Part shown: one piece after another, positions 11,089 to 31,767 of the stretch
How the letters are laid out: each line of letters starts with the position of its first letter
How positions within the stretch are numbered: position 1 is the first letter of the stretch
DNA from: Escherichia coli
GTDB taxonomy: Bacteria > Pseudomonadota > Gammaproteobacteria > Enterobacterales > Enterobacteriaceae
Length of the DNA stretch: 64,000 bases
NCBI RefSeq assembly: GCF_030013595.1
Contig: NZ_CP122768.1
Strand: one strand, 5' to 3'
Notes under the pieces: generated by a model
What the model was told of the DNA's origin: nothing
Seen by the model: the letters and a program-made list of their open reading frames with translations, nothing else
Database searches by the model: none
Program-made: the position numbers and the translations under genes

Positions 11089-11123
11089 AATGATGTCCTC
11101 ACGAGGATGTTAAAGTTTTATTA

Positions 11124-12443: not shown

Positions 12444-12457
12444 TGACTCCTTTACTG

Positions 12458-14022: not shown

Positions 14023-16893
14023 TTATATTTTTTCCAGCGCGGTGAGTATTTTCTCCGGTGTGAAATGCCATTCGCGTAACCAGATGCCGCATGCATCGTG
14101 AATTGCGGTAGCAATCGCCGGAGCTGCGCCATTTACACCGATTTCCGAGATTGATTTCGCCCCGAACGGGCCGACTTTATCGTCGCTCGGCACCAGCACA
14201 GCGCGGAAATCACGTGGAATGTCACCAATTTTCGGTGCGCCGTAACTGCGTAAATCACGCGTTAACGGGTGACCTTCGGCGTCATAAATGATTTCTTCGC
14301 TCATACTGTGGCCGATAGCACGTAGGGTAGCACCGTAGATTTGTCCCAACGCTAACTCTGGATTGACCGGTGTACCGCAGTCCAGCAAGGCGTAGAATTT
14401 ATCCAGGCGGATTTCACCCGTACGCGTGTTGACGGCAACTTCAGCGAAGTTTGCGCCATACGGGAAGGCGAAATCTGGCGTGATATAACTGCCAGTTCCC
14501 ACCAGTGAACCAAAGCCGGTGCCGGTTTCGCCTTTATGGGCAATATCCCCGAAGCTAACTTCGCCTTTCTTGCCGCGCACGACGCCCGGCGTTGCCAGTT
14601 GAACATCTGCCACTGGCTCACCCAACATTTGCGCACCGTGGAACAGAATTTTCTCCCGCAGATTTTCCGCTGCCATACGCGCCGCGTTACCAGAGAAGCA
14701 AGTACCGGACGAGGCATATGCGCCTTTATCAAACAACGCATGATCGGTATCACCGGAGATAACATGCACGTCCTGCGGTGGGCAGTGCAGCACTTCTGCT
14801 GCCAGTTTCGTCACCACAGTATCCAGACCAGTGCCAATATCCGCACCGCCAGAATGAACGATAAAGGTACCGTCTGATTCCAGTTTGATCATGCAGTTAG
14901 CCTGATCGATATCCGGGATCCCTGATTTCTGCATGATAATGGCGACGCCACGACCGATGTGCCAGTCACCGTTTTGTGGTTTTGGTGAAGACCATTGGAT
15001 CATCTCGCGACCCTGACGCAAGATCTCTTCCAGTGCGCAGCTGGCGGCGGAAGGAACGGAGGTCGGCGCTTTACCTTCACCGATTGCACCGAGAATTTTC
15101 AGCTCTTGCCCTTCGTGTACCCGGTTACGTTCGATAATTTCCAGTTGGTCGATCTGTAACTGTTCAGCCAGTTCCGCTAATGCCATGGTGATAGCGAAGT
15201 TACCTTTCGGTGCGCCATAACCCTGATAAGCACCATTTGGGCAAATGTTGCTGTAGTAGGTGGTGACCTGGAAATCGACGTTATCGCACGGATATAACGG
15301 CAGCGACAGCGCCGGTCCGTTACACGGTACGGTGAGTGAGTGGTTGCCGTAAGGGCCAGTGTTGGCGCGGAAATCCATCTTCACTGCCGTCAGGCGACCA
15401 TCTTTTTTCGCTCCCAGTTTGACGGTGACTTTCGCGACGTGACGAGAGGTGTTAGCAATAAACTCTTCTTCACGGGTGTAGCGGAACAGTACCGGACGCC
15501 CGGTCACGCAGGTTGCCCAAGCGCACACTTCTTCCAGCAGGATGTCCTGTTTAGACCCAAAACCGCCGCCAACTCGCTCTTTAATGACATGAACTTTATG
15601 TTGTTTCATGCCCACGAGGCGCGCGACCTGGCGGCGTAAGTGCCATGGTACCTGGGTGGAGGCGTGGATAACCAGACGATCGCCGTCCATACGGGTAAAG
15701 CAGATATGTGTTTCAGTCGGGCACTGCTGCGCCTGCGTTGAGTTATAGGTTCGCTCAATGATCACATCGGCATCGGCAAAGCCTTTGTCCATATCGCCAA
15801 TATGACCATGAATACTGGCGGCGATATTTTTACGGGGGCGAGAACCGATCGGGAAGTTGATGATCATATGCTCGCCGCGCTGGGCTGCATGGCTGTTATC
15901 GTCTTCCAGAGTATCTGGCGCACCAGCAACATACACCACCGGTTCATCGTGCACGACAGGTGCATCTTCCGCCATTGCTTCGTCAATCGACATTACCGGC
16001 TTAAGCACTTCATATTCAACGTCGATGAGCTTCAGTGCTTCGAGCGCAATTTCTTCACTTTCAGCGACGACCGCAGCAACGCGATCGCCGACGTGACGCA
16101 TTTTCTTGCCGAACATACGGCGGTCAAGCGGTGACGGTTCCGGTGCGCTCTGACCGCCCGGGGTATAGTAGATATCCGGGCAATTCAGGTGAGTAATAAC
16201 GTGAACAACGCCCGGTAAGGCTTCAGCTTTGCTGACATCCAGATGAGTAATCAGTGCGTGAGCGTGTGGGCTACGTAACATTTTAATGACGCAGGCGTCA
16301 GCCGTTACGCGGTCTTCAACATAGCAGGGTTTCGCCTGCACCATTTTCGCGGCATCAGTTTTAGGATAATGCTTACCAATGACTTCAAGGTCATCGCGGA
16401 AAGTTGGAGCGATATCAATGGTGGCCTGCGGATTATTTTTACGTGCAACCGCCAGTTCAATGACCTGATAGTATTGTTGCCAGCCTGCATCGCGGCTGAA
16501 CAAACCAGAAAGCGCGTCGTCGATCTCTTCGCGGGTCGGTGCGGCAATGCGATCGAGAAGATCGGTGATAATCAGAGCCGCAGCTGGATCGTTATAACCA
16601 GACTGCACCACGCCAACATCAACCATTGCCTGTTGAACCAGACTTAACTCGTTCCATTTGCCCAGAGACTCTGCGGTACGAATATCTGCCTTCTCTAACT
16701 GTGCGGCGATAAGCAAGGACGCGTTAACGATATTACCGTTAAAGATAATTGCGTCTGAACCGGCAAACCCGAATCCATCATCGCTGTTGCGTACAGAGTG
16801 CATTCCCATGTTAAACAACAGCTTTTGCACGTTTTCGCCTGGATTAACGGTTAGCTCCTGAGGCGCGCCATTTAAAGTAAAGTGGATGATCAT
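14023..16893 (-). CDS. xdhD: Molybdopterin-dependent hydroxylase, fused 2Fe-2S and Moco domains (xanthine-dehydrogenase family)
   Basis: 956-aa ORF, MIIHFTLNGAPQELTVNPGENVQKLL...; family assigned from domain organisation. Confidence 0.92.
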   Translation of the reverse strand: MIIHFTLNGAPQELTVNPGENVQKLLFNMGMHSVRNSDDGFGFAGSDAIIFNGNIVNASLLIAAQLEKADIRTAESLGKWNELSLVQQAMVDVGVVQSGYNDPAAALIITDLLDRIAAPTREEIDDALSGLFSRDAGWQQYYQVIELAVARKNNPQATIDIAPTFRDDLEVIGKHYPKTDAAKMVQAKPCYVEDRVTADACVIKMLRSPHAHALITHLDVSKAEALPGVVHVITHLNCPDIYYTPGGQSAPEPSPLDRRMFGKKMRHVGDRVAAVVAESEEIALEALKLIDVEYEVLKPVMSIDEAMAEDAPVVHDEPVVYVAGAPDTLEDDNSHAAQRGEHMIINFPIGSRPRKNIAASIHGHIGDMDKGFADADVIIERTYNSTQAQQCPTETHICFTRMDGDRLVIHASTQVPWHLRRQVARLVGMKQHKVHVIKERVGGGFGSKQDILLEEVCAWATCVTGRPVLFRYTREEEFIANTSRHVAKVTVKLGAKKDGRLTAVKMDFRANTGPYGNHSLTVPCNGPALSLPLYPCDNVDFQVTTYYSNICPNGAYQGYGAPKGNFAITMALAELAEQLQIDQLEIIERNRVHEGQELKILGAIGEGKAPTSVPSAASCALEEILRQGREMIQWSSPKPQNGDWHIGRGVAIIMQKSGIPDIDQANCMIKLESDGTFIVHSGGADIGTGLDTVVTKLAAEVLHCPPQDVHVISGDTDHALFDKGAYASSGTCFSGNAARMAAENLREKILFHGAQMLGEPVADVQLATPGVVRGKKGEVSFGDIAHKGETGTGFGSLVGTGSYITPDFAFPYGANFAEVAVNTRTGEIRLDKFYALLDCGTPVNPELALGQIYGATLRAIGHSMSEEIIYDAEGHPLTRDLRSYGAPKIGDIPRDFRAVLVPSDDKVGPFGAKSISEIGVNGAAPAIATAIHDACGIWLREWHFTPEKILTALEKI

Positions 16894-17669
16894 ACGGCTT
16901 CCTCCCCAGCCTGTTGGCAGTCGGCATACAGGTCGGCTACCAGAACTCCCGTGATATAGCGTTTATAGGCCACGCTGCCCCGCAAATCTTCCTGCGGGAA
17001 AATGGCGTTGGCGACAGCCTGTTCAAGTGCATTGCCTTCCAGATTTTGTTTTTCAACATCGTGCAGACGCAGGGCTTTACTGGCGACGCCATCCAGCGCA
17101 ATTCGCATACCGTCGTGGTCTGTCATTGCAACGGCTGCCGTCACGACGGTTAAACCTGCCTGAGAACGGCTAATTTTGCGGGTCGCACAGGTGCGATACG
17201 GATCTTTAATGATAATTTCGGTTAGCAGGCGATCGCATGGGCAGGCCAGGTACTCTTCGATTGACAGCGTTTCGCCGTTGCCAAAAACCAGTTCAGCATC
17301 CAGTGCCAGCAGGACGGGAAGCAGCACAGACTCTTCCTGCCGGGCGGCGATTTCACCACCAATGGTCGACTGATTACGAACATGGCGTGAGTAAACAAAA
17401 CCGAGGGCTTCACGCAGTGCTGCAGGAATAAATCGCGCATCACGCAGTGGCTGCAAGCGAGACATTGCGCCAATCCGCAGTGCACCGTTATCCCAGTCAA
17501 CCCAGTCCAGCTCCAGATCCTGTAAGGAAATGGCAATCTTTTTATCGGTACGGGTTGGTGTAGCGTTGAGTTTGCTGCCCCCGGCGAACCAGACGGCTTC
17601 ATCCTGGTAACGGCGCTTCAGTTCCAGCGCCTGTTCGACAGAGTCGGGCCTGAAAAATTGTTCAATCAT
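16890..17669 (-). CDS. ygfM: FAD-binding subunit of a molybdo-hydroxylase (CO dehydrogenase flavoprotein-like)
   Basis: 259-aa ORF; stop overlaps the xdhD start (ATGA). Confidence 0.88.
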   Translation of the reverse strand: MIEQFFRPDSVEQALELKRRYQDEAVWFAGGSKLNATPTRTDKKIAISLQDLELDWVDWDNGALRIGAMSRLQPLRDARFIPAALREALGFVYSRHVRNQSTIGGEIAARQEESVLLPVLLALDAELVFGNGETLSIEEYLACPCDRLLTEIIIKDPYRTCATRKISRSQAGLTVVTAAVAMTDHDGMRIALDGVASKALRLHDVEKQNLEGNALEQAVANAIFPQEDLRGSVAYKRYITGVLVADLYADCQQAGEEAV

Positions 17670-17719
17670 CTTCTTTCCTTATTTAACCCTCTTCCCAGCG
17701 GGAAGAGGGTATTTGTCAT

Positions 17720-19048
17720 TTATGCCAACGCATCCATCCGACGCCACATACTGGCAGCGGCTTTTCTGGCTTGCGCATAAATGGAATCGCAATCGAAGTT
17801 AAACTGACGGTCTTCATAGACCATCACGCCATTGACCATCACGCTATGAACGCTGCCTGAGCCCATACCGAAAGCGATATGCCCGGCGATATTGTCTGCC
17901 AGCAGCGGTGTCGGCGAGTTGTAATCGCAAATGGTTAAATCGGCTTTGTAACCGGCTTCCAGAAGGCCAAATTTCGCGCCAAAGTTGCGGCTCATCAGTT
18001 CGTTGCCGTTAGCCAGTGCTTTGGCAAAACTGTTAGGCCACAGCGGACCACCCGCATCGCGATGTTTAAAGAAGGCAAATTTCATCTCTTCAAACATGTC
18101 CGAACCAATGCCGTCAGTTCCCAACGCCAGATTGCGGATGTCGCTAAGGTGATGGTTGTAGCCGACATGGTTGTTCATGTTTGAACGGGCGTTATGCACC
18201 AGGAACGCATCGCGCTGATTGAGTAGGGCGATGTCATCTTTCGACAAGTACAGCCCATGAGCGACCAGCGTTTTGCTGTCGATGAGATCGAATTGCGCCA
18301 GTCGTGCCAGCAGGTCTTTGCCGTACCAGTGGTGACTGTAGGAAACGTCATAAAGGTCTTCCGCAGCGTGAATGTGCAAACCACGACCTGTGGCTTTCAC
18401 GGCTTCACGCAGCATCTCCAGACCGGCATCCGGCACGGTAAACGGCGCGTGAGCGCCGATATGAGCTTCCACCAGATACGGCTCGGTTGCTGCTTTCTTC
18501 GCCTCATCAATCTGACGGGCGAAGCGGATGTTTTCTTCTACACCTTCCTGCAACTCTTTGATGCTGTTGTTACGGTCAGTAGTTTCAAAACAGGTCATCG
18601 CGCGCAGGCCAACTTTTAAAAATGCGTTGCGCAATGTGGAGAGCGACCCGCCGATATACGCCGGAGAGGCATGGTGATCGATAACCGATGTACATCCGCT
18701 CTTAATCGCTTCCAGGGAACAAATCAGTCCGCTGTAATAGAGCGACTCTTCATCAAGGGCGCGATCGAGTCGCCACCAGAGATTTTTCAGCGTTGAGATG
18801 AAATCCGGGCAGGGGGCGATGTTTGCCATAATTCCGCGGGACAGCCCCGAGTAAAAATGGTTGTGCGAGCAGACAATTCCCGGCATCACAATCCGACCAT
18901 GCATCTCTTTGTAGCTGGCATCGGGGTAGCGTTGCGTCAGGGCATCGCCGATAGCAACAATCACATCATTTTCGATGGCGATATCAACGCCTTCCTGCAC
19001 TTTCGCCGGGTGTAACTGCACTGCGGTGACATTCTTCAGAATCAACAT
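17720..19048 (-). CDS. ssnA: Putative aminohydrolase SsnA (chlorohydrolase / amidohydrolase family)
   Basis: 442-aa ORF with the HNHF metal-binding motif near the N-terminus. Confidence 0.9.
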   Translation of the reverse strand: MLILKNVTAVQLHPAKVQEGVDIAIENDVIVAIGDALTQRYPDASYKEMHGRIVMPGIVCSHNHFYSGLSRGIMANIAPCPDFISTLKNLWWRLDRALDEESLYYSGLICSLEAIKSGCTSVIDHHASPAYIGGSLSTLRNAFLKVGLRAMTCFETTDRNNSIKELQEGVEENIRFARQIDEAKKAATEPYLVEAHIGAHAPFTVPDAGLEMLREAVKATGRGLHIHAAEDLYDVSYSHHWYGKDLLARLAQFDLIDSKTLVAHGLYLSKDDIALLNQRDAFLVHNARSNMNNHVGYNHHLSDIRNLALGTDGIGSDMFEEMKFAFFKHRDAGGPLWPNSFAKALANGNELMSRNFGAKFGLLEAGYKADLTICDYNSPTPLLADNIAGHIAFGMGSGSVHSVMVNGVMVYEDRQFNFDCDSIYAQARKAAASMWRRMDALA

Positions 19049-19050
19049 GA

Positions 19051-22000
19051 TTACACCTCCACGCGGCCCAGCAGATAATGATGATGCTGGTGGACATGGC
19101 TAATAATGCGGCACATATCGTTCAGCTCCGGTGGTACGTTGTTGAACTGACCTTCGCTGTCGATGCTTAACACCCAGCTTTGGTTATTCAGACGTACTCG
19201 TACCCGGCAATCTTCCACAAGGAAGCCAGGATTGCTGCTGTTATCAAAGTCTTGCGACAGGCTGAAGACGGTGATTTTGTCTTTGTACGGTTTACCGTTC
19301 CACGGGCAGAACTGAGCGCAGTTGCCGCATTCGTTACAGTAAGCGTCGAGGTGCAGCGTCTGGAAACGGTTCTGGAAGCCAGGGACCGCAATGGATACGT
19401 TGGCACGGTTCGGGCAGACATCCACACACTTGCTGCAAACGTAGTTACATTCAAGGCAGCGTGCGGCTTCCTGGGCGACAAACGCGTCACGATCGTCGCT
19501 ATCCACCAGGGTGATAGAGATATCGCCTTTGCGTTGATAGATTTCCGCCGGATTGACGTTGTTCCAGTATTTATCGTTCTGGTGGGAACGGATATTTTCC
19601 CGACTAAGGATGGCATCGGTCGCCCGACGCGCGGTTCCGACAGCAGCGACAATGGAGGATGGTCCGCGCTGTACGTCGCCGATCATAAAGACGTCAGTCA
19701 GACGAGTTTCGCCATTATGGTCGACGTCTGGCCAGCCGTTTTTGTCCAGCGGCACGCCCATCGCATTCAGGGCTTCAGTATCCTGCTGTTCACCAATGGC
19801 GGTGATCAGGCTGTCTACATGCAGTGTTACTGTTTCGTTGGTTTCAACCGGACGGCGACGACCTTTCTCATCAGGTTCGCCAAGCGACATAACGCGCAAG
19901 GTTAAGGTGCCATCAGCATCGAAACGTTCCGGATTATTCAGGAAACGGAACTCCACGCCGTCGTGCAACGCTTCTTCATACTCTTCGCGCCATGCTGGCA
20001 TCTCTTGCAGTGAACGACGGTAAACGACCGTTGCTTTTTCTACGCCTGGAACGCGTAACGCCGCACGAGCGCAGTCCATTGCCGTGTTACCCGCCCCGAC
20101 AACGACCACATGTTTGCCCAGCTTGAGCGCTGTGCCCTTGTTGTATTCACGCAGGAAGGGGAGTGATTTCCAGACATTTTGGTTGTCGCCCGCCAGTTTC
20201 ACACCGCTATTTTTATCAGTGCCGGTGGCAATCAGAACATAGTGGAAGCCCTGATTTTTTAACTGTTCAACGGTCAAATCGGGTGAGCAGCCATACTCAA
20301 ATTTCACGCCGTGAGCGGCAACAAAATCAATATCGTGCTGAATTAACTCTGCAGGAATACGGAACTGAGGAATGATATTTTTCACCACGCCGCCCGCATT
20401 GGCTTCGCGTTCAAACAGCGTAACCGGATGGCCCGCTCTGGCAAGGAAGTAACCTGCTGCCAGACCCGCCGGACCTGCACCAATCACGGCAACCGGATGG
20501 CGTGAACCAGAACCGGCGGGTTTGTGCCACCGTTGCTTATATTCATCCCAACCTTTTTCCAGCGCGACTTTTTTCAGTTCGCGGATATTCAGCGCACTGT
20601 CGTAATCCAGGCGGGTACAGTTGTATTGGCACTGGTGATCGCAAATATGACCGGTAATGGCGGGCAGGGCGTTGCGTTGGTAGATGAGTTCCAGCGCGTC
20701 AGCATAGCGGTGTTCGCCAAGCAAACGGATGTATTCCGGAATATCTTGCTTGATAGCGCAGGCAGTAACACAGGGGGCAACGTAGCAGTCGGTCAGCGGC
20801 AGGTCTTCTGCCACTTCAATACGCTCTTCTGGCTTCCAGTGTTTCTGGGTGTATTCCATGGTTAACGCGTCTGCTGCCAGTTTGTTCAGTCGTTCGACGT
20901 CAACATGGTCAAGCCCCCAGGCGTCGGAGCCTTCCAGCTCGCGCATGCAGGCACTTAAGCGCAGATAGCCGCCAGGTTTCAGCAGGTCGGTTGCCATAGT
21001 AATAGGGCGAATACCAGTATCAAAAATATCGCGGATAGTCAGCTGACTGGCACCACCGGAATAAGAAATGGGCAGTTTGCCGTCAAAGGCGCGAGAGAGA
21101 ACTGCTGCAACATTGATGGAGAGCGGGAACAGCGCACGGCCTGACATATACATCTCTTCACCAGGCAGTGCGCCTTTATTGTTGATGGTGCCGAGAGTGT
21201 TAGTCAATTTTACGCCAAAGCCGAGTGATTTTTCTTTTGCCAGTACCATCAGGCGTTCCAGCATTTCCAGCGCTTGCGTCAGCTTGAGGTCGTGATCAAA
21301 TGACTCTTCTTTTAAGCCTATGTAACCGAAACCGCAGACATCGAGGATCTCACGAACACGCGCGTACCCCAGTAAGGTCGGGTTGAGTTTCACAAAGGTA
21401 TTGAGCCCTTTTTCTTCCAGCATGTAGCGGCAAATGGCTTCGATTTCATGCGGAGGACAGCCGTGCATGGTGGAGAGGGTGACGCCCTGCACCATACTGG
21501 TGGGGATGCGAGCGGGTAAAGCTTGCAAGCTTTCGCGTTTTTCCTGCAATCCGTGGCGGGCTAAAAATGCGTCATCCTGGAGTAATTTATTCAGCGTATC
21601 GCGATATTGAGCGAATTTCGGATGGTCAGATGCATCCATCATATTGTCGATGAACTGTTGCATCGGAGGTTGCTTAATACCTTCGAGGTTATAACCGACG
21701 CTCATATTAAAGATGAACGATTTACCGGAATCAGAAGGTTGGAACATCGCTTCGAGAAGATGCAGGGCAAACCAGGCTTTGAGGTATTCATCCCAGGCTT
21801 TAAGCAGGGTAAATTCGGTAGACCATTCGGTGTTAAAGCACTCGTCTTCGGCATCGATACAGGGCTTTTCCAGTTCCAGGCGGTCAAGAATTTGGACGGT
21901 TTTTAGTTCGATGAAGCGCCCGCCAGTCAGCCAGGAAGTGACAATATTTTGCGCGAGCTGCGTGTGCGGGCCAGCGGCAGGGCCGACGGGAGTGGCACAG

Positions 22001-22149: not shown

Positions 22150-22221
22150 AACCCTCTCCTTAGCTTATACAGATATCATTGAGTGACCGGTGTTGAGAAA
22201 TCCGGTGGTTTAGGGGGATAG

Positions 22222-22246
22222 AGCAACAATCGCACCACTCTTGCCA
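22222..22246 (-). promoter_or_regulatory. Candidate sigma-54 promoter (-24/-12) for ygfK
   Basis: Minus strand reads CTGGCAAGAGTGGTGCGATTGTTGCTC: two overlapping GG-N10-GC matches (TGGCAA-N5-GTGCG and TGGTGC-N5-TTGCT) about 75 bp upstream of the ygfK ATG. Confidence 0.3.
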
Positions 22247-22470
22247 GGTTTGGCGGGAAATATAAAAAAATGTGAGGCGGCTCGAAACTTAGGAGCTTTT
22301 TGTGAATGAACTCACAGGTGCCAAATGAGAATTAAAATCACTCCTGAAAATTATTATTGCCAGCCCATTTATCACTTTTTCTCTTTTCTCAAAATCAGTG
22401 ATTCCTTATCATTATGATAAAGAGTGCTGGAGGGATTAAATATTTGAACGCAATCGTTTAACTACATTTT

Positions 22471-23151: not shown

Positions 23152-23922
23152 GTGAAAAGTATAGTTGACCCATCGGCATTATTCATTGATTTAGGCGCGC
23201 AGAAACGTCCCATTGTGATTTCTGTTGTTGGGGCTGGGGGGAAAACCAGCTTGCTTTTTTGGCTGGCAGAACTGCTCCAGGCTAGCGGCAGGCGTGTGTT
23301 AATCACGACGACGACACATATGTTTATGCCAACGTCTCACTGGCCCGTGGTTTTCTGTCGTGATCCCGCCATGCTTCCTCATGCGTCTTTTATATCCCCC
23401 ATTTCATTTTGTTTTCACAGCTGGAAAGCGAACCAGGGAAAAGTGCAGGGATTTACGCCAGAAGCGATTGATGCACTGGTACAACGATCAGAGTGTGACG
23501 TAATTCTCATTGAGGCAGATGGCTCGCGTGGAATGCCGTTAAAAGCGCCTGATGATCACGAACCTTGCATACCTAAAAGCAGTTGCTGCGTGATTGCTGT
23601 GATGGGAGGACATATTTTGGGTGCAAAAGTGAGCACAGAAAATGTCCATCGCTGGTCGCAGTTTGCTGATATTACCGGGTTAACACCTGATGCACCCTTG
23701 CAACTGAGCGATCTCGTTGCGCTGGTTCGCCACCCTCAGGGCGCGTTTAAAAACGTACCGCAAGGTTGTCGGCGAGTCTGGTTCATTAACCGTTTTTCTC
23801 AATGTGAGAATGCGATTGCGCAAAGCGAGCTCCTTCAACCGCTGCAACAACACAACGTAGAGGCAATCTGGCTGGGCGATATACAAGAACATCCTGCAAT
23901 CGCGCGCAGATTTGTGAATTAG
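23152..23922 (+). CDS. yqeC: Putative selenium-dependent hydroxylase accessory protein YqeC
   Basis: 256-aa ORF, MKSIVDPSALFIDLGAQKRPIVISVVGAGGKTSLLFWLA (P-loop-like). Confidence 0.88.
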   Translation: MKSIVDPSALFIDLGAQKRPIVISVVGAGGKTSLLFWLAELLQASGRRVLITTTTHMFMPTSHWPVVFCRDPAMLPHASFISPISFCFHSWKANQGKVQGFTPEAIDALVQRSECDVILIEADGSRGMPLKAPDDHEPCIPKSSCCVIAVMGGHILGAKVSTENVHRWSQFADITGLTPDAPLQLSDLVALVRHPQGAFKNVPQGCRRVWFINRFSQCENAIAQSELLQPLQQHNVEAIWLGDIQEHPAIARRFVN

Positions 23923-23969
23923 CGGCCCGGGTATTCCGGGTTACTGAAAGGATATCCATTGAGGTTGGT

Positions 23970-25595: not shown

Positions 25596-25603
25596 ATGAA
25601 AAT

Positions 25604-25632
25604 GGCCGGATGGTATTACCCACCCGGCCTTT
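25604..25632. terminator. Hairpin terminator between convergent yqeB and yqeA
   Basis: GGCCGGATGG-tatta-CCCACCCGGCC followed by TTT. Confidence 0.55.
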
Positions 25633-25635
25633 AAA

Positions 25636-26568
25636 TTACTGACAAATCACCGTTCCGGTTTTGCCTTCAATCCCTTCTTTCGCTTTGCTCAATACGGTAA
25701 TCAGTGCTTCACGACCTGCGCGAGAGCGAGCAAACGAGGCGGCAGCTTCCACTTTAGGCAGCATAGAACCTTTCGCAAAATGACCTTCTTCGATAAAGCG
25801 TTCAGCATCACTTAATGACAGGCGATCGAGCCACTGTTCATTCTCTTTACCGAAGTTAATGGCCACTTTTTCTACCGCAGTCAGAATGATCAGCATATCG
25901 GCATCAATCATTTCTGCTAAACGGGCGCTGGCCCAGTCTTTATCGATAACCGCACTGGCACCACGCAGGTGGTTACCTTCACGAATAACAGGGATACCAC
26001 CACCGCCAACGGTGATCACCACCTGGCCTGCATCTACCAACGCTTTAACCGTTTCTTTTTCAATGATATCAACCGGTTTTGGCGAGGCAACAACACGGCG
26101 ATAGCCGCGACCAGCATCTTCTTTCAGAGTGTAACCCTGTTTTGTCAGTTGCTCTGCTTCTTGCTCGGTAAAGAACGAACCGATCGGCTTGGTCGGGTTG
26201 AGGAATGCCGGGTCGTTAGCATCGACTTCGACCTGGGTAACCAGCGTTGCTACAGGTTTATTAATGCCACGAGAAAGCAGTTCTTCTCTTAATGCGTTTT
26301 GTAGATCGTAACCAATATAACCCTGGCTTAAGGCAACACAGACAGACATCGGCAGCATTGGCGAGTGCGCTTCAGTTTTTGCGGCAGCTTCAAAGGCCTG
26401 GTTAATCATGCCCACCTGTGGCCCGTTACCGTGAGTGACGATGACCTCATGTCCCTGGGCAATTAAATCAACAATTGCCTGAGAAGTAATTTTTACCGCT
26501 TTCATTTGTCCGGCCAGGTCATCGCCCAGCGCATTCCCGCCCAGGGCGAGAACAATTTTCTTACTCAT
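25636..26568 (-). CDS. yqeA: Carbamate kinase-like protein
   Basis: 310-aa ORF, MSKKIVLALGGNALGDDLAGQMKAVK... (amino-acid kinase family). Confidence 0.9.
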   Translation of the reverse strand: MSKKIVLALGGNALGDDLAGQMKAVKITSQAIVDLIAQGHEVIVTHGNGPQVGMINQAFEAAAKTEAHSPMLPMSVCVALSQGYIGYDLQNALREELLSRGINKPVATLVTQVEVDANDPAFLNPTKPIGSFFTEQEAEQLTKQGYTLKEDAGRGYRRVVASPKPVDIIEKETVKALVDAGQVVITVGGGGIPVIREGNHLRGASAVIDKDWASARLAEMIDADMLIILTAVEKVAINFGKENEQWLDRLSLSDAERFIEEGHFAKGSMLPKVEAAASFARSRAGREALITVLSKAKEGIEGKTGTVICQ

Positions 26569-26615
26569 TTTTCCTCACTCATCATTCTTGATTGTGTATA
26601 GATCCCTGGCAGTGG

Positions 26616-28001
26616 TTAGAGCACGGGAGGGACAAACGGTTTGCGTCGCAGGAAACGACCTCGCCCGGCTTTGCCTGTAAAGGTGCCGTCACAGAAAATC
26701 GTTTCACCACGGGATAAAGTTCTGACAATCGCGCCCTGACAGGTAAAACCCTCCCATGGCGAATAGTCAGCGTTGTCGTGGAGATGGCGATGCTGAATTT
26801 GTTGGCTCTGACGTGGGTCGATAATCACCACGTCGCCATCGGAACCGGGCGCTAATAATCCTTTTTGCGGCCACAGGCCAAACAGCCTGGCGGGCATCGC
26901 GCTGGTTAATTCAACAAAACGTTCCGGTGTTATACGTCCCGTCATTACGCCACTGGAAAACAGTAACTGCATGCGGTTTTCCACACCGGGTAAGCCATTT
27001 GGGCAGCGACTGAAATCGCCTTTAGAAATTTGCAGGCGTTGAGCCATCGAGAATGAGCAGTGATCGGTCGCTACCACGTCAATCGCACCATCGCTGATGC
27101 CACACCACAGTTTGTCCTGCTCGCGTACGTTACGCAGCGGTGGGCTAAGAATGAACTTCATGCCATCTTCTGTATCGTAACTGCGTTCGTCCAACAGGAG
27201 ATATTGTGGGCAGGTTTCAACCCAGACTGGCTGGTGATTCGCACGGGCAAGACGCAGATAATCCAGACCTAAGCCGTTAGACAGGTGCACGATATAGAGC
27301 GGGGCGTTACCGGCAATTTGTGCCAGGTTAATCATGCGGGCGATGGCTTCCGCTTCGCATTCCAGAGGGCGACTCAAGGCGTGATAGCGCGGCGCGGTTA
27401 ACCCTGCGGCAATAAACTCCGCCCGCTTGCTGGCGATAGCTGCATCATTTTCCGGGTGCACGGTGGTCAGCGCGCCGGACTCATGCAAGCGGCGTAACGC
27501 CTGCAAAACTTCGTCATCGTTGAGTTTGTATTGATAGGTTAAATAGAGTTTAAAACTGCTCAGTCCTTCTTCGACCATCATCGGAATTTCGTCGAGGATG
27601 GCGTGATTAATGTGCTGGATCACACCGTGAAAGCTGTAGTCGATGACCGCCTTATGGGCGGCATAACCACGATAAACCTCCAGTTGATGGCGTAACCGGC
27701 AGCCATTCGGGCCAAATCCCATATGGTCAATAATGGTTGTTGTACCGCCACACGCAGCTGCGCGGGTACCGGTAAAAAAATCATCACAACTGTGCGCGAT
27801 GCCGACATCAATATTGAAATGCGTATGGACATCCACGCCGCCAGGGAAAACGTAACAGCCAGTGGCATCAATTTCTTCATACGGGAGCTGTGGCGAAATA
27901 TTGTTGCCCAACTGGCGAACAATCCCGCTTTCAATCAGCAAATCCTGTTTGGCTTGTCCATCTGCGTTAACGACAGTGCCGTTTTTGATCAATACGCGCA
28001 T
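26616..28001 (-). CDS. hyuA: D-phenylhydantoinase / dihydropyrimidinase-family amidohydrolase
   Basis: Start placed at MRVLIKNGTVVNADG (ATG 28001-27999); 461 aa; VDVHTHF metal-binding motif. Confidence 0.9.
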   Translation of the reverse strand: MRVLIKNGTVVNADGQAKQDLLIESGIVRQLGNNISPQLPYEEIDATGCYVFPGGVDVHTHFNIDVGIAHSCDDFFTGTRAAACGGTTTIIDHMGFGPNGCRLRHQLEVYRGYAAHKAVIDYSFHGVIQHINHAILDEIPMMVEEGLSSFKLYLTYQYKLNDDEVLQALRRLHESGALTTVHPENDAAIASKRAEFIAAGLTAPRYHALSRPLECEAEAIARMINLAQIAGNAPLYIVHLSNGLGLDYLRLARANHQPVWVETCPQYLLLDERSYDTEDGMKFILSPPLRNVREQDKLWCGISDGAIDVVATDHCSFSMAQRLQISKGDFSRCPNGLPGVENRMQLLFSSGVMTGRITPERFVELTSAMPARLFGLWPQKGLLAPGSDGDVVIIDPRQSQQIQHRHLHDNADYSPWEGFTCQGAIVRTLSRGETIFCDGTFTGKAGRGRFLRRKPFVPPVL

Positions 28002-28053
28002 AGCAAACTCCAAAAACCCTCCGGCGAACCGGAGGGGAATAAGTGAAGAGTAA

Positions 28054-29265
28054 TTATTCGGTTGCCAGCCAGCTTAACGGGATTGCCGCGTACATCGCGG
28101 CACAGGTCACCAGGTGAGATTTCCAGGTTTTTTCGTTAGGTGCATGCGCTTCAGGTTCTTTACCTGGGCCAAAGCCGATCACCGGAATGCCGTGACGGCC
28201 CATGATAGATACGCCGTTAGTTGAGAAGGTCCACTTATCAACAACCGGCGCTTTGCCAAACAGACCTTCGTAGGCATTCACCAGTGCTTTAACGGTGAAG
28301 TGATCTTCTTCCACTTTCCAGGTCGGGAAGTAGCATTCGGTTGGGTAAACCAGGCCAGTCCAGGACGGACGGTCGTAGTTGTACATAGAAACAACCGCGT
28401 TAGCTTTCTGTACTGCAGGCAGGGCGCGGATTTCGTCCAGCGCGCCTTCCCAGGTTTCGCCCCAGGTCAGACGGCGGTCAATAGAGACGGCGCAGCTATC
28501 TGCTACAGCGCAACGGCTTGGGGATGTGAAGAAGATTTCAGAAACGGTGAGGGTGCCTTTGCCGAGGAATTCGTCATAACCCAGACGTTGGGAGAGTTCT
28601 TGTAATTCGCCAAGAATTGGACCCATTTTGAAAATGGCGTTGTCACCGCGTTCTGGCGCAGAACCGTGGCAGCTAACACCCTGAACATCAATACGAATTT
28701 CCATACGACCGCGCTGACCACGGTATACCTGGCAGTCGGTTGGTTCGGTACTGACCACAAATTCCGGGCGAATGCCGGATTGTTCAATAATGTACTGCCA
28801 GCACAGACCGTCGCAGTCTTCTTCCTGCACAGTACCGGTAACCAGCAGGGTATATTCATCTTCCAGACCGAGGTCTTTAATGATTTTACCGGCATAAACC
28901 ATAGATGCCATGCCGCCTTCCTGGTCGGAAGTACCGCGACCACCGATCAGCTCATCAGTTTCCATGCCTTCGTACGGATCGAAGTCCCAGTTTTTGATGT
29001 TGCCAATGCCGACGGTATCAATATGAGCGTCCATTGCCACCAGACGTGGGCCGTGGCCGATATAACCGAGAACGTTGCCCATCGGGTCGATTTCAACTTT
29101 ATCGAAGCCGACTTTTTCCATCTCTTCTTTAATACGATGTACTACGCGTTTTTCGTCGCAGCTTTCACTGGGAATAGCAACCATGTCGCGCAGGAAGCGA
29201 GTCATGTCCGCCTGGTAATCTTTTGCTTTTTCAAGAATCAGTTTGAATGGAATATTCTTAGCCAT
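28054..29265 (-). CDS. ygeY: M20-family peptidase / putative selenium-metabolism hydrolase YgeY
   Basis: 403-aa [38 protein letters not shown]... Confidence 0.9.
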
Positions 29266-29322
29266 TATTTTTCTCCAGATTTTTTACTCCCCGTTTTGCA
29301 GGGAGCAGTTCCAATAGGGTGA

Positions 29323-30519
29323 TTAAGGTGCTACAGCGTGTTTGCCTTCCCAGACAACTTCGCGGTAGTGCTTCACGTCTGTGTCGCCTTCAGTGCTGAT
29401 AACCAGCACTACGGCATCTTTGTTCAGCGCCAGTTTTTCCATCAGGCTTTGACGTTGCGGGTGATAATGAACCGCTGCGAGAACGCCCAAACCGACAGCG
29501 CCGGATTCACCGGAGATGATGCGCGGGTCATTGCCGTACGGATTACCCAGCACACGCATACCTAATGCGGCAACACTGTCCTGGCAGGAGATGAATTGGG
29601 TGGCGCAGTTACGTAGGATTTCCCAGCCCAGCGGGTTAGGTTCGCCGCAGGCCAGGCCCGCCATGATGGTGGCCATATCACCGCCAACGTTGACGATGTC
29701 GCCTTTGACGCCGGAGCGATAAATACAGTCAGCTTTGTCAGGTTCAACAATAATGCTGTGCAGATTTTGCGGGCTATAGACGTCGACCAGATAACCCAGC
29801 ACACCACCGGCCATTGCACCGACACCAGCTTGCAGCAGAACGTGCGTCGGGGTTACGCCCATTTCACGCATTTGCTCGACGGCTTCATCTGCCAGTGTTG
29901 CATAGCCCTGCATGATCCAGGTTGGGATTTTGGTGTAACCTTCCCAGGCGGTATCTTGCACCACTTCCCAGCCGTGCTGCTGCGCGTGTTGCATGGTCAG
30001 GCGAACGGTATCGTCATAGTTCATATCCGTGACGATGCACTCGGCACCGAGGTTCAGAATGGCGTCAACGCGTTCCTGAGCAGAACCTTTCGGCATGTAA
30101 ATCACCGCATTCTGTCCGAGTTGCTGTGCTGCCCATGCCACACCGCGCCCGTGGTTGCCGTCGGTGGTGGTCGCGAAGGTCATTTTTTCGCCGATGGCAT
30201 TTTTCAGATGCTCAAATGACAGCGTTTCGATATCAAGATGATATTTTTCACACAATAATTGAGCGATGGCGTACGCACCGCCGAGCATTTTGAAGGCGTT
30301 CAGACCGAATCGTTTTGATTCGTCTTTGACGAGAATTTTCTTCACACCAAAAAGGTTTGCGAGATCGTCCAGCGCACAAAGCGGTGTTGGGCGATAACCA
30401 GCAATTTTCTGGTGGAACTGGCGCGCCAGTTTGGCCTGGCTTTGCGAAAAGAGCGGTGATGTTTCGCCGTTGAAAAATTTGTTATCGGCGATATCAATCT
30501 TCAATGAGAAAACGGACAT
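29323..30519 (-). CDS. ygeX: 2,3-Diaminopropionate ammonia-lyase (PLP-dependent)
   Basis: 398-aa ORF with a tryptophan-synthase-beta-like PLP fold. Confidence 0.9.
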   Translation of the reverse strand: MSVFSLKIDIADNKFFNGETSPLFSQSQAKLARQFHQKIAGYRPTPLCALDDLANLFGVKKILVKDESKRFGLNAFKMLGGAYAIAQLLCEKYHLDIETLSFEHLKNAIGEKMTFATTTDGNHGRGVAWAAQQLGQNAVIYMPKGSAQERVDAILNLGAECIVTDMNYDDTVRLTMQHAQQHGWEVVQDTAWEGYTKIPTWIMQGYATLADEAVEQMREMGVTPTHVLLQAGVGAMAGGVLGYLVDVYSPQNLHSIIVEPDKADCIYRSGVKGDIVNVGGDMATIMAGLACGEPNPLGWEILRNCATQFISCQDSVAALGMRVLGNPYGNDPRIISGESGAVGLGVLAAVHYHPQRQSLMEKLALNKDAVVLVISTEGDTDVKHYREVVWEGKHAVAP

Positions 30520-30576
30520 ATCCTATCCTTTTGGCCTCTGGAAATAGAGGGCCGACCAGCTGATCGGCCCGAGGGG

Positions 30577-31767
30577 TTATTTCACGCGTTCTTGCGCTTC
30601 TTTCAGCAGTTGCTCGAGCAGTGCACCTGGTTTGGCGTATTTGCGGGACAGGATCATCGCGGCGATGATATAAGGCTTCCAGCTGGCTTCTTTGTAGGTC
30701 GCGATACGGTATTTTTCGAATACGCCTTCAGTCACTTCACCTTCTTTGCAGGATACGCCGCTGATATCAGCTGGCAGGCAGTGCATGTACAGGGCTTCGC
30801 CATCACGGGTCAGTTCCATCATCTCTTCAGTACAATGCCAGTCTTTGTGTTGCGCGTTCTGTGCCAGACACTGTTTTTCCAGTGCTTTTAAGCCTTCGTG
30901 ATCGTTCGCACGCAGCAATTCAGTACGCTCTTCCATCACTTTGTAAGGTGCCCATGACTTCGGATAAACGATGTCTGCGTCTTTGAAGGCTTCTTCCATG
31001 CTGGTGACCTGACGGAAGCTACCGCCGGAGGCTTTAGCATTGTTTTTAGCGACTTCAACGACATCCGGGATCAGGTCGTAGCCTTCCGGATGGGCCAGGG
31101 TGACATCCATACCGAAGCGAGTCATCAGACCGATGATGCCTTGTGGTACAGAGAGCGGTTTGCCATAGCTTGGGGAGTAGGCCCAGGTCATGGCGATTTT
31201 TTTACCTTTCAGGTTTTCCAGTGAACCAAAGTGTTCACGTAACCATGCCAGGTCAGCCATTGACTGAGTCGGGTGGTCAATATCGCATTGCAGGTTCACT
31301 AAAGCCGGACGTTGCGGCAGCACACCCTGCTTGTAACCGTCATCAAGTGCAGCGCCAACTTCACGCATATAGGCGTTGCCTGCGCCCAGATACATATCGT
31401 CACGAATACCGATGGCATCGGCGCAGAAGGAGATCATATTGGCGGTTTCACGCACTGTTTCGCCGTGAGCGATTTGTGATTTGCCTTCGTCGAGATCTTG
31501 CTGTGCAAGGCCGAGCAGGTTAAGCGCGGAAGCATAAGAGAAACGGGTACGGGTGGAGTTGTCGCGGAATACGGAAATACCTAATCCACTATTAAAGACT
31601 TTGGTTGAGATGTTTTCAGCACGCAGTGCTTTTAATGCTGCGGCAACGTCCAGTACTTGTTTCAGTTCATCTGGCGTCTGTTCCCACGTTAACAAAAAAT
31701 CTTTCTCGTGAAGGTGAGAGGTCAGCGAATTGATATCCTTAATCAGCTCATTAACAGTTTTCATCAT
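30577..31767 (-). CDS. ygeW: Putative carbamoyltransferase YgeW (transcarbamylase fold)
   Basis: 396-aa ORF, MMKTVNELIKDINSLTSHLHEKDFLLTWEQTPDELKQ... Confidence 0.9.
   Translation of the reverse strand: MMKTVNELIKDINSLTSHLHEKDFLLTWEQTPDELKQVLDVAAALKALRAENISTKVFNSGLGISVFRDNSTRTRFSYASALNLLGLAQQDLDEGKSQIAHGETVRETANMISFCADAIGIRDDMYLGAGNAYMREVGAALDDGYKQGVLPQRPALVNLQCDIDHPTQSMADLAWLREHFGSLENLKGKKIAMTWAYSPSYGKPLSVPQGIIGLMTRFGMDVTLAHPEGYDLIPDVVEVAKNNAKASGGSFRQVTSMEEAFKDADIVYPKSWAPYKVMEERTELLRANDHEGLKALEKQCLAQNAQHKDWHCTEEMMELTRDGEALYMHCLPADISGVSCKEGEVTEGVFEKYRIATYKEASWKPYIIAAMILSRKYAKPGALLEQLLKEAQERVK

Follow-up and report, generated by a model that had tools for sequence, protein, structure and literature searches.

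The region is very probably the gene cluster with which Escherichia coli degrades uric acid reductively and independently of O2, by the route known as the 2,8-dioxopurine or 'yanthine' pathway, combined with genes for molybdenum cofactor maturation. It lies in a window of 64,000 nucleotides, the whole stretch of DNA analysed, and comprises the twelve genes from xdhD to ygeW (Table 1), which a preliminary description had presented as a complete molybdenum-hydroxylase neighbourhood; a molybdenum hydroxylase and its accessory genes are indeed all present, and each of the twelve products exceeds the curated threshold of the NCBIfam family dedicated to it. In 2025, two groups reconstituted the pathway with enzymes of E. 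coli K-12 (Li et al., PMC12507026; Liu et al., bioRxiv 10.1101/2025.04.24.650524), and the K-12 proteins used in this work are 98-100% identical to those of the cluster described here. The earlier remark that several of the products are uncharacterised is outdated after this reconstitution; only YqeB and YqeC are without an assigned biochemical role.

As assayed with the K-12 proteins, XdhD and the co-purifying YgfM (Li et al.) would convert uric acid to 2,8-dioxopurine by loss of the 6-oxo group; XdhD retains E606 and the conserved GAKxxSE glutamate E917. YgfK, which carries four [4Fe-4S]-type cysteine motifs, would use NAD(P)H to reduce the pyrimidine ring, which SsnA, studied in a coupled YgfK-SsnA assay (Li et al.), would then open to ureidomethyl-hydantoin. 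HyuA (assayed by both groups) would open the hydantoin to 2,3-diureidopropionate; YgeW (likewise assayed by both) would release one ureido group by phosphorolysis as carbamoyl phosphate, from which carbamate kinase YqeA would generate ATP, and ATP formation by YgeW and YqeA together has been reported (Liu et al.). YgeY would remove the second ureido group (assay in Li et al.), and YgeX, with a demonstrated cellular role (Liu et al.), would convert 2,3-diaminopropionate to pyruvate and ammonia. In vivo, a delta-xdhD mutant accumulates uric acid while 2,8-dioxopurine is absent, and a delta-ygfK mutant forms no ureidomethyl-hydantoin.

Two older interpretations of these genes have to be weighed against this enzymology. 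The product name 'putative selenate reductase subunit YgfK' persists in RefSeq and NCBIfam, and ygfK, ygfM and ygfN were listed as subunits of such an enzyme after earlier genetics (Haft and Self, 2008); that YgfK, YgfM and XdhD (YgfN) reduce selenate is nevertheless very unlikely and already largely refuted, since purified E. coli YgfK requires NADPH and is specific for 2,8-dioxopurine, with selenate neither required nor stimulatory (Liu et al.), XdhD-YgfM turns uric acid into 2,8-dioxopurine (Li et al.), and a selenate reductase leaves no place for the other nine genes. Scarcely credible, and already contradicted by the 2025 enzymology, is the reading of XdhD as a conventional xanthine/hypoxanthine oxidase next to a separate hydantoin or D-amino-acid route formed by HyuA, YgeY and YgeX. 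[quoted passage not shown]

The uric acid cluster is intact in this strain. Its twelve products have the same lengths as in K-12, with no gaps, no internal stops and 96.4-100% amino-acid identity, and the comparison with these reference proteins revealed no frameshifts, in keeping with the earlier description of the genes as full-length; YqeA, YgeY, YgeX and YgeW are each 100% identical to K-12, XdhD differs at one residue, and the RefSeq annotation of a near-identical strain shows the same twelve genes. The cluster of K-12 MG1655 (b2870-b2881) has the same gene set, order and strands at approximately 2% nucleotide divergence; it differs by a REP-like insert of approximately 180 nt between yqeB and yqeA, where a single hairpin is found here, and by the absence of a G>T substitution in the yqeC-internal promoter that is private to this strain. 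The tight spacing noted previously was borne out: xdhD and ygfM overlap by 4 nt at ATGA (minus strand 16893-16890, ...CCGTATGATC...), and the distances within transcription units are -4, 2, 47, 47, 50, 52, 57 and 57 nt. Four larger gaps are regulatory: ygfK-mocA (321 nt), the divergent mocA-yqeC (102 nt), the convergent yqeB-yqeA (40 nt), and ygeW-ygeV (475 nt). Relative to K-12, the enzymes have dN/dS values of 0-0.08, which reflects strong purifying selection; the values are 0.16 for mocA, 0.02 for yqeB and 0.29 for yqeC, the weakest constraint in the cluster. Among 5426 complete E. coli genomes, 5193 contain the region, and in 5148 of the 5426 a single location covers 80% or more of it; the complete cluster is the norm in E. 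coli, and the cluster itself is ordinary and already well described.

Table 1. Features of the uric acid cluster and its surroundings in E. coli GCF_030013595.1, contig NZ_CP122768.1; bit scores are followed by family cut-offs.
Feature	Position	Strand	Description
uacT, ygfT-ygfS, ghxQ, guaD, xanQ	5394-13858		Annotation; all intact relative to K-12
PygfT	7215-7231		Sigma-54 site; one spacer substitution relative to K-12
xdhD	14023-16893	-	TIGR03313, 2122 (1102); Fer2_2, a/b hammerhead, MoCoBD_1, MoCoBD_2; Mo subunit, uric acid 6-dehydroxylase
XdhD N-terminal ferredoxin-like domain	16399-16893	-	Codons 1-165; 0 of 8 [2Fe-2S] cysteine ligands
ygfM	16890-17669	-	TIGR03312, 488 (241.5); FAD_binding_5, CO_deh_flav_C; FAD-binding subunit
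ssnA	17720-19048	-	TIGR03314, 738 (455.5); amidohydrolase
ygfK	19051-22149	-	TIGR03315, 1781 (835); Fer4_20, Pyr_redox_2; NAD(P)H:2,8-dioxopurine oxidoreductase, Fe-S flavoenzyme
PygfK	22222-22238	-	Sigma-54 promoter GTGGTGCGATTGTTGCT; ChIP-seq site OS31 (Bonocora, 2015), independently found by motif scan
CRP box upstream of ygfK	22301-22316		TGTGAATGAACTCACA; perfect consensus
Candidate upstream activator element	22318-22335	+	GTGCCAAATGAGAATTAA; related to TATCAATATGAGAATTAC
mocA	22471-23049	-	TIGR03310 equivalog, 210 (186); NTP_transf_3; molybdenum cofactor cytidylyltransferase (MCD form)
yqeC	23152-23922	+	Putative SIMIBI-class NTPase
Candidate upstream activator element	23500-23517	-	TGCCTCAATGAGAATTAC
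Promoter within yqeC, drives yqeB	23553-23569	+	Sigma-54; K-12 site IS34
yqeB	23970-25595	+	XdhC_CoxI and XdhC_C (chaperone part, residues 12-247); TIGR03309, 415 (220) (selenium-linked part, residues 271-526)
yqeB/yqeA hairpin	25604-25629		Single, GC-rich, terminator-like; 10 pairs, 8 G-C, then T-run
yqeA	25636-26568	-	TIGR00746, 386 (358); carbamate kinase
hyuA	26616-28001	-	TIGR02033, 674 (393); hydantoinase; mechanical ORF extends to TTG at 28013
ygeY	28054-29265	-	TIGR03526, 722 (321.5); M20 hydrolase
ygeX (dpaL)	29323-30519	-	TIGR03528, 651 (532); diaminopropionate ammonia-lyase
ygeW	30577-31767	-	NF005538, 825 (453); carbamoyltransferase
PygeW	31858-31874	-	Sigma-54 promoter CTGGCACACTTATTGTT; ChIP-seq site OS30
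CRP-like box upstream of ygeW	31917-31932		One mismatch
Candidate upstream activator element	32070-32087	-	TATCAATATGAGAATTAC
ygeV	32243-34021	+	Sigma-54 enhancer-binding activator; Sigma54_activat, AAA_lid_14, HTH_8, PAS; outside the twelve genes
xdhABC	34061-37684	-	Three-subunit xanthine dehydrogenase; intact relative to K-12
PxdhA	37779-37795	-	Sigma-54 promoter; ChIP-seq site OS29

The working unit is broader than these twelve genes and extends from uacT to xdhA, with ygeV in the middle; the extent given previously holds for the twelve intact genes and is too narrow in omitting uacT, ygfTS, ghxQ, guaD and xanQ on one side and ygeV and xdhABC on the other. The former group encodes urate/purine transporters, guanine deaminase and formate-dependent Fe-S oxidoreductases; XdhABC, the enzyme missing in the mutant that does not consume xanthine, would supply uric acid to the pathway. 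All five sigma-54 sites mapped by ChIP-seq in this region of K-12 (Bonocora, 2015) are present here, three of them identical to K-12, and the window's only match to TGGCAC-N5-TTGCW with a single mismatch lies in PygeW (31858-31873). The sigma-54 units are ygeWXY-hyuA-yqeA, ygfK-ssnA-ygfM-xdhD and yqeB, with the neighbouring xdhABC and ygfTS also equipped with such promoters, and their predicted activator is YgeV; the YgeV iModulon includes xdhABC, ygeWXY, hyuA, ygfK, ssnA, ygfM, xdhD, ygfT and uacT. Behind the candidate activator elements at 22318-22335 and 32070-32087 are two repeated words: AATGAGAATTA, for the former, has two copies in the window where shuffling gives 0.03 on average, and the 12-mer TATCAATATGAG, for the latter, has four against none in 30 shuffles. 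The intragenic site IS34, validated by mutation in K-12 (Bonocora, 2015), reads TGATCAC... here, with one substitution in the -24 element (G>T at 23556) that also gives YqeC E135D; the T allele occurs in 0 of 5426 E. coli genomes and the G-allele control in 5134. The CRP box of ygfK is the sole perfect TGTGA-N6-TCACA match in the 64-kb window, and a native Crp site in the intergenic region upstream of ygeW is mentioned in the literature; these boxes would account for the reported glucose repression of the pathway.

For the maturation genes, family membership suggests that MocA would make the cytosine-dinucleotide form of the cofactor and that the XdhC-like half of YqeB would load it into XdhD, with XdhA a probable second recipient. 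By analogy with orthologues, YqeC, a putative NTPase, would assist the TIGR03309 half of YqeB in placing labile selenium on the molybdenum, using selenophosphate made by SelD; the earlier view of yqeB and yqeC as markers of labile-selenium molybdenum enzymes agrees with the published trait assignment (Haft and Self, 2008). Selenium dependence has been demonstrated for the Clostridium enzyme, and orthology suggests it for E. coli XdhD: purification from a selD mutant of C. sporogenes yielded inactive DOPDH, and in C. difficile a delta-yqeB mutant phenocopied selD mutants, while deletion of yqeC had no phenotype there (Johnstone and Self). Directly beside xdhD (TIGR03313), ygfM and ssnA, a Holophaga-like contig carries an xdhC-like gene, yqeC, yqeB, a cysteine desulfurase-family gene, selD, a Se/S-carrier gene and tusA. 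A real possibility, if a somewhat doubtful one, is that the E. coli enzyme depends on sulfur and not on selenium, that YqeB acts on XdhD and XdhA as an XdhC-type chaperone and nothing more, and that YqeC and the TIGR03309 domain either stand idle or serve another purpose. YqeB is the only XdhC-type chaperone of E. coli for XdhABC and XdhD; active E. coli XdhD-YgfM was obtained with selenium not addressed (Li et al.); E. coli 'likely does not make SDMHs' (Johnstone and Self); and the weak constraint on yqeC points the same way. The near-universal presence of selD (5425 of 5426 genomes) proves nothing, since E. coli needs this gene for other selenium uses. Against this reading stand the extreme conservation of the YqeB C-domain (E. 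coli and Moorella sequences are 55-60% identical), the low dN/dS of yqeB, the SelD requirement of the orthologous Clostridium enzyme, and the clustering of selD with an xdhD orthologue, yqeB and yqeC in the Holophaga-like contig. In its predicted structure (pLDDT 94), this conserved C-domain pairs a Rossmann fold with a fold of the biotinyl-carrier type (barrel-sandwich hybrid). YqeC, a putative NTPase, has the fold of the SIMIBI P-loop class; a sequence search detected no relative of solved structure. The metallocentre-assembly NTPases UreG, HypB, CooC, MeaB and ApbC may be its functional analogues, but at 10-18% identity none is a close structural relative, and YqeC is set apart by an invariant H-E-P-C motif of its own.

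The uric acid clusters of C. sporogenes and C. difficile (DOPDH/XdhAC, YgfK or UacX, SsnA, HyuA, YgeY, YgeX) share their chemistry and core enzyme families with the E. coli pathway. The Clostridium pathway is selenium- and SelD-dependent, and its molybdenum enzyme, to which Fe-S domains are ascribed, lacks a YgfM subunit and makes no use of NAD(P)H, whereas in E. coli-type XdhD YgfM is present and the Fe-S ligand cysteines are absent; C. difficile has UacX in place of YgfK and the hydrolase UacY in place of YgeW/YqeA. Ring reduction followed by hydrolysis in the Pyd pathway (PydA, PydB) parallels YgfK, SsnA and HyuA, and ATP formation from carbamoyl phosphate by ornithine carbamoyltransferase and carbamate kinase in the arginine deiminase pathway resembles YgeW and YqeA; in contrast to both, the substrates here are purine-derived and molybdenum-dependent dehydroxylation comes first. 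With E. coli XdhABC and the xanthine dehydrogenase of R. capsulatus (PDB 1JRO), XdhD-YgfM shares the Mo-binding domains, the catalytic glutamate, a homologous FAD subunit and a ferredoxin-like domain homologous to the Fe-S subunit; XdhD differs from these canonical enzymes in acting reductively at C6 instead of oxidizing C2 or C8, and in having lost every one of the eight cysteine ligands of the two [2Fe-2S] clusters.

This loss, together with the folds of YqeC and of the YqeB C-domain, is new in the present analysis; the literature examined on the pathway does not mention it. XdhD has no cysteine within residues 1-160, the first being residue 190; its N-domain aligns with XdhC (32% identity, E = 2e-21) with each ligand cysteine substituted, whereas XdhC in the same window retains eight of eight. 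Ligand loss defines a conserved clade, while all eight ligands are kept in 32 of 36 fused relatives with an alignable N-domain; the N-domain codons show 12 synonymous and no non-synonymous differences from K-12. Since XdhD lacks the eight [2Fe-2S] ligands, the reported NADH to FAD to molybdenum electron route has no obvious wire, and the route reported for XdhD-YgfM may not be the physiological one.

At the gene level, the identification of the 17.7-kb stretch from ygeW to xdhD (14023-31767) is correct; it is the cluster already known from E. coli K-12, most of whose biochemistry has been published, in another strain. A mechanical ORF list and the RefSeq annotation of a near-identical strain agree on the twelve genes and on the positions assigned to them in the preliminary description. 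The alignment that it had proposed for detecting frameshifts was run against the proteins of K-12 MG1655; all twelve products have the same length as their counterparts, with no gaps, no internal stops and 96.4-100% identity. Neither an in-frame UGA nor any other stop codon occurs inside any of the 12 genes, and therefore no selenocysteine is encoded. For each of the 12 products the score exceeds the curated cut-off of the corresponding NCBIfam profile (see table), and the Pfam domain architectures are as expected. Relative to K-12, the enzymes show a dN/dS of 0-0.08, mocA one of 0.16 and yqeC one of 0.29; XdhD shares 99.9% identity with the K-12 protein that was assayed, and four of the five proteins HyuA, YgeW, carbamate kinase, YgeY and YgeX are 100% identical to theirs. 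The ATGA overlap of ygfM and xdhD is present (16893-16890), and spacing inside the transcription units is -4 to 57 nt (2 nt between ygfK and ssnA); the longer gaps measure 321, 102 and 475 nt, and the convergent genes yqeB and yqeA are 40 nt apart.

Profile matches of the cluster products (NCBIfam, with family cut-offs), and predicted regulatory and RNA features of the window
Feature	Model or sequence	Position	Strand	Score or remark
XdhD	TIGR03313			2122.6 bits (cut-off 1101.9)
YgfM	TIGR03312			488 bits (241.5); FAD_binding_5 (Pfam)
SsnA	TIGR03314			737.8 bits (455.5)
YgfK	TIGR03315			1780.6 bits (835.3)
MocA	TIGR03310			210 bits (186)
YqeC	TIGR03172			237.5 bits (73)
YqeB	TIGR03309	residues 271-526		415.2 bits (220)
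YqeA	TIGR00746, carbamate kinase			386 bits (358)
HyuA	TIGR02033, D-hydantoinase			674 bits (393)
YgeY	TIGR03526			722 bits (321.5)
YgeX	TIGR03528, diaminopropionate ammonia-lyase			651 bits (532)
YgeW	NF005538			825 bits (453)
PxdhA	sigma-54 promoter	37795-37779	-	identical to K-12
PygeW	sigma-54 promoter	31874-31858	-	identical to K-12; OS30
PygfK	sigma-54 promoter	22238-22222	-	identical to K-12; OS31
PygfT	sigma-54 promoter	7215-7231	+	one spacer substitution vs K-12
PyqeC (inside yqeC)	sigma-54 promoter	23553-23569	+	one substitution vs K-12
Candidate activator element, PygeW	TATCAATATGAGAATTAC	32087-32070		
Candidate activator element, PygfT	TATCAATATGAGAAAATT	7049-7032		
Candidate activator element, PxdhA	TATCAATATGAGTGGCGA	37893-37910		
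Candidate activator element, PygfK	GTGCCAAATGAGAATTAA	22318-22335		
Candidate activator element, PyqeC	TGCCTCAATGAGAATTAC	23517-23500		
CRP box	perfect	22301-22316		upstream of ygfK
CRP box	one mismatch	31917-31932		upstream of ygeW
GC-rich hairpin		30549-30570		after ygeW
GC-rich hairpin		28017-28036		after ygeY
GC-rich hairpin		17686-17710		ssnA/ygfM gap
GC-rich hairpin		13998-14013		after xdhD
Strong terminator-like hairpin		25604-25629		
tRNA-Gly	Rfam	38970-39040		outside the cluster
int-alpA RNA	Rfam	40467-40534		outside the cluster

The window is E. coli chromosome. Of 5426 complete E. coli genomes, 5193 contain a match to the cluster, and 5148 carry 80% or more of it in one place; its complete state is the norm for the species, and one more strain with an intact copy is nothing new in itself. 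The flanking genes uacT, ygfT, ygfS, ghxQ, guaD, xanQ, ygeV and xdhABC are likewise all intact when compared to K-12. An apparent overlap of xanQ with xdhD, in which an ORF of 544 aa (12458-14092) enters the 3' end of xdhD by 70 nt, was discarded as an ORF-calling artefact; from its annotated start, which is also that of K-12, xanQ encodes 466 aa and is separated from xdhD by 164 nt. The best-matching strain, HCP5S3_I2, is not identical to the window; it differs by 7 SNPs inside the cluster and diverges completely beyond tRNA-Gly (from about 39,045). Past this tRNA gene (39045-64000), the window no longer matches its nearest relative and consists of a mosaic island, in which genes for glycoside hydrolase 15 and for type III secretion (ETT2-type) come after the int-alpA RNA; at least 80% of this island in one place was found in none of the complete E. 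coli genomes, and the counterpart region in K-12 holds pseudogenes and IS2. The tRNA and the int-alpA RNA are the sole Rfam matches in the window; within the cluster the scan detected neither riboswitches nor any other RNA family.

The preliminary description regarded several of the products as biochemically uncharacterised; this is still true for YqeB and YqeC only, since the pathway enzymes were solved in 2025. The E. coli cluster has been characterised as a "reductive pathway" in which YgfK and SsnA make ureidomethyl-hydantoin with NAD(P)H, HyuA opens its ring, YgeW forms albizziin (3-ureido-2-aminopropionate) with phosphate, and YgeY and YgeX yield pyruvate (Li et al., Life Metab 2025, PMC12507026); ATP is produced by YgeW together with YqeA (Liu et al., bioRxiv 10.1101/2025.04.24.650524). 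Anaerobic consumption of uric acid via 2,8-dioxopurine has been reported for K-12 and Nissle. Deletion of ygeW, ygeX, ygeY, hyuA, ygfK or ssnA in MG1655 abolished the formation of labelled acetate from uric acid; in the xdhD deletion mutant uric acid builds up from xanthine and no yanthine appears, and the ygfK deletion mutant forms no ureidomethyl-hydantoin. The reading of YgfK as a selenate reductase, which survives in RefSeq names, is contradicted, as the purified enzyme neither requires selenate nor is stimulated by it.

Against this background, the molybdenum subunit XdhD has an unusual N-terminus. Its residues 1-165 show homology to the 2x[2Fe-2S] subunit (Pfam Fer2_2, 47 bits) and share 32% identity (E = 2e-21) with XdhC, the separate Fe-S subunit of XdhABC in the window; yet this domain is devoid of cysteine, and the first cysteine of XdhD is residue 190. 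In the alignment, the eight ligand cysteines of XdhC correspond to D, A, D, S and S, N, S, D in XdhD, and none of the eight is kept. The wider family was sampled through 150 representatives of 50%-identity clusters, among which 36 fused relatives had an aligned N-domain; 32 of these 36 keep all eight cysteines, as do two truncated representatives with 49-52% identity. Ligand cysteines are entirely absent from E. coli XdhD and from the three representatives closest to it, and one relative (P0246) has lost cluster I alone; ligand loss is thus not a family-wide trait. The cysteine-less form occurs in Vescimonas fastidiosa, a gut member of the Oscillospiraceae, where its sequence cluster comprises 1913 sequences, and in every one of the 61 N-domain relatives, whose identities are 47-100%, including named Citrobacter, Vibrio and Photobacterium; the homologue search behind the latter count yielded mostly gene fragments, which are informative for the ligand columns and not for gene context.

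To judge from its sequence, the cysteine-less domain is not decaying. Compared to K-12, it shows 12 synonymous and no non-synonymous codon differences; the E. coli and Vescimonas domains share 46-47% identity, as against 25-37% with cysteine-retaining relatives, and the replacement motifs S-D-D-x-x-G-F-[AT]-G-S-D, Q-S-[GA]-Y-N and [SI]-R-[DSA] are conserved. The molybdenum site is intact (Pfam MoCoBD_1 and MoCoBD_2), with E606 and the glutamate E917 of a GAKSISE motif that aligns with GAKEASE of 4-hydroxybenzoyl-CoA reductase. YgfM accompanies cysteine-less and cysteine-retaining XdhD alike, and YgfK contains four [4Fe-4S] motifs. Measured against the canonical xanthine oxidase wire (Mo - 2x[2Fe-2S] - FAD), XdhD has the molybdenum domains, the glutamate and an FAD subunit, YgfM, but not one of the Fe-S ligands. 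We tentatively propose, at somewhat less than even confidence, that the E. coli-type XdhD is a xanthine oxidase family member that naturally lacks Fe-S clusters and has kept its ferredoxin-like domain; its cysteine-less clade would include Enterobacterales, Vibrionaceae and gut Oscillospiraceae, while syntenic orthologues of similar identity keep all eight cysteines.

In the xanthine oxidase family, electron transfer between molybdenum and FAD runs via two [2Fe-2S] clusters. Without these clusters the two centers would probably be too far apart for efficient transfer; if the proposed reading of XdhD is true, the accepted route from NADH via the FAD of YgfM to molybdenum would have no electron wire. 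Electrons might then reach molybdenum through another Fe-S partner, either YgfK or the formate-linked YgfT/YgfS/AegA, or, alternatively, by slow long-range transfer. The molybdenum site could also work in a ping-pong mode, oxidizing one purine and dehydroxylating uric acid, so that external electrons would not be needed; the net reaction would be a transhydroxylation of xanthine to 2,8-dioxopurine.

The loss of the ligands is not remarked upon in the 2025 pathway papers, in a 2025 commentary, in Haft and Self (2008) or in a 2010 review of the chaperones, in a survey that extended to literature outside subscription-only sources; the commentary names YgfM "the electron-transfer module." In current annotation XdhD is a 'Mo/Fe-S-binding subunit', and P0416, P0430, P0455 and P0460, fragments of the cysteine-less N-domain, are each a '2Fe-2S iron-sulfur cluster-binding protein'; these Fe-S names seem to derive from fold homology alone and are probably wrong for this clade. 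In the Vescimonas locus (L004, 5065-12880), the cysteine-less xdhD comes directly after a mocA-like gene, a three-subunit xanthine dehydrogenase set (Mo, 160-aa Fe-S and FAD subunits) and a second short FAD-binding gene, a gene order that raises the question whether the separate Fe-S subunit is shared by both molybdenum enzymes. A general rule that such a subunit lies beside a cysteine-less xdhD is not supported; the arrangement occurs in Vescimonas and was not seen within 10 kb in a further locus (L006).

The statement that yqeB and yqeC are regarded as markers of labile-selenium molybdenum enzymes is an accurate account of the literature (Haft and Self, 2008), and both trait markers, the YqeB-family domain TIGR03309 and the YqeC family TIGR03172, are present above their cut-offs. 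The co-occurrence with selD that had been suggested as a check holds within E. coli, where 5425 of 5426 complete genomes carry the gene, but is uninformative there because E. coli uses selD also for selenocysteine and selenouridine; by the same occurrence selD, which lies outside the window, is near-certain in this genome. Across phyla, co-occurrence is borne out directly by a Holophaga-like contig (L005). Its XdhD orthologue (TIGR03313, 1197.6 bits vs. cut-off 1101.9) is preceded by a YgfM-like gene, and the two overlap by 4 nt as in E. coli; genes for a dihydropyrimidine-dehydrogenase-like reductase, SsnA and 8-oxoguanine deaminase lie 5' of it, and directly 3' of it lie genes for an XdhC-like protein, YqeC, a stand-alone YqeB domain, a cysteine desulfurase-family protein (best match the EF2568 type, slightly under cut-off), SelD (364.6 bits vs. 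125), a Se/S carrier and TusA.

This physical clustering of selD with xdhD, yqeB and yqeC orthologues speaks against a selenium-free E. coli enzyme, as does the selD-dependent activity of the Clostridium orthologue: a C. sporogenes selD mutant yielded inactive DOPDH on purification. On xanthine and uric acid, a C. difficile yqeB deletion mutant behaves like selD mutants; the yqeC deletion has no phenotype. [quoted passage not shown] (PMC12507026), in which selenium is not mentioned; on balance, we consider this alternative somewhat doubtful. Selenium dependence is supported for the family and unproven for E. coli XdhD.

YqeB is a fusion of an XdhC-type chaperone half (residues 12-247) with the TIGR03309 domain, which usually stands alone with about 270 residues and retains 55-60% identity between E. 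coli and Moorella. The predicted structure of this domain (pLDDT 94) combines a Rossmann-type nucleotide-binding subdomain with a barrel-sandwich subdomain of the biotinyl/lipoyl-carrier type; the model superimposes on biotin carboxyl carrier protein with 1.0 A over 63 residues at 32% identity, and the domain has no invariant cysteine, but K225, D228 and D230 (domain numbering) are invariant in it. In a sequence search of solved structures, YqeC found no match and YqeB matched in its XdhC-like half only. We infer that YqeC may be an NTP-driven cofactor-maturation factor resembling UreG, HypB and CooC, and that YqeB may couple the handling of molybdenum cofactor with a nucleotide-dependent step. 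Even without selenium use yqeB belongs in this cluster, because its product is the sole XdhC-type chaperone available to XdhABC and XdhD in E. coli.

A consensus scan located sigma-54-like sites in the right orientation in both long gaps, upstream of ygeW (31873-31858) and of ygfK (22237-22222); as the generic consensus count in the window is not above chance (37 vs. 41.8 expected), these two matches are meaningful because of their position and their identity to ChIP-mapped sites. ChIP-seq in K-12 had identified sites for ygeW (OS30), ygfK (OS31), xdhA and ygfT, and an intragenic promoter in yqeC whose mutation made YqeB undetectable (Bonocora et al., 2015). All five sites are in the expected places here, three of them identical and two with one substitution each. 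The substitution in the yqeB-driving promoter, G>T at 23556, changes TGAGCAC... of K-12 to TGATCAC... and removes the only remaining G of the -24 'GG'; it also changes YqeC by E135D. The 41-mer with T occurs in none of 5426 complete E. coli genomes and the G version in 5134; either the substitution is found in this strain alone or it arose from an error in sequencing.

The gene for the putative cognate activator YgeV, with sigma-54 interaction, AAA lid and HTH_8 domains (Pfam), is located between ygeW and xdhC (32243-34021, + strand); in enterohaemorrhagic E. coli it has been renamed IsrR, 'indole sensing regulator', and linked to virulence-gene expression, and in baeR and cpxR knockouts its regulon has been connected, in an iModulon study, with ethanol stress. 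The YgeV iModulon comprises xdhABC, ygeWXY, hyuA, ygfK, ssnA, ygfM, xdhD, ygfT and uacT; from the extent of this regulon and the intact flanking genes, the functional neighborhood extends from about 5394 to about 37795 and is wider than the twelve-gene cluster. One copy of a related element lies, in either orientation, upstream of each of the five sigma-54 promoters. The exact 12-mer TATCAATATGAG has four copies in 64 kb, the fourth within ygeY (29016-29027), and none in 30 shuffles; a loose search (up to 6 mismatches in 18) is unspecific, with 58 matches vs. 22-43 in shuffles, and enrichment is limited to exact 9-12-mers. On this sequence evidence, the TATCAATATGAGAATTAC-like element is a candidate YgeV binding site; no published site was found in the literature on YgeV and its iModulon. 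Two CRP boxes agree with the glucose repression and with the Crp site in the ygeV/ygeW gap that have been reported. A generic scan for sigma-70 promoter-like sites gave 17 in the window vs. 18.7 expected.

Terminator-like sites number 30 in the window vs. 22 expected, and only the strong hairpin in the yqeB/yqeA gap (25596-25635) was used. Here this hairpin is single; in the K-12 locus (L002, 17394-17615) about 180 nt of REP-like sequence are inserted between the two convergent genes and bordered by a duplicate copy of the hairpin. The four GC-rich intercistronic hairpins could be partial terminators or mRNA stabilizers, in a scan that is not clearly above shuffles.

The cluster provides gut bacteria, E. 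coli included, with a route of uric acid disposal that is relevant to human health, and efforts are under way to build it into probiotics for use against hyperuricaemia and gout. The electron source of an XdhD without Fe-S ligands would bear on the flux-limiting reductant in such engineered strains; as E. coli is genetically easy to work with, the questions of selenium, of the roles of YqeB and YqeC, of the electrons of XdhD and of the signal and DNA site of YgeV are directly testable in this organism.
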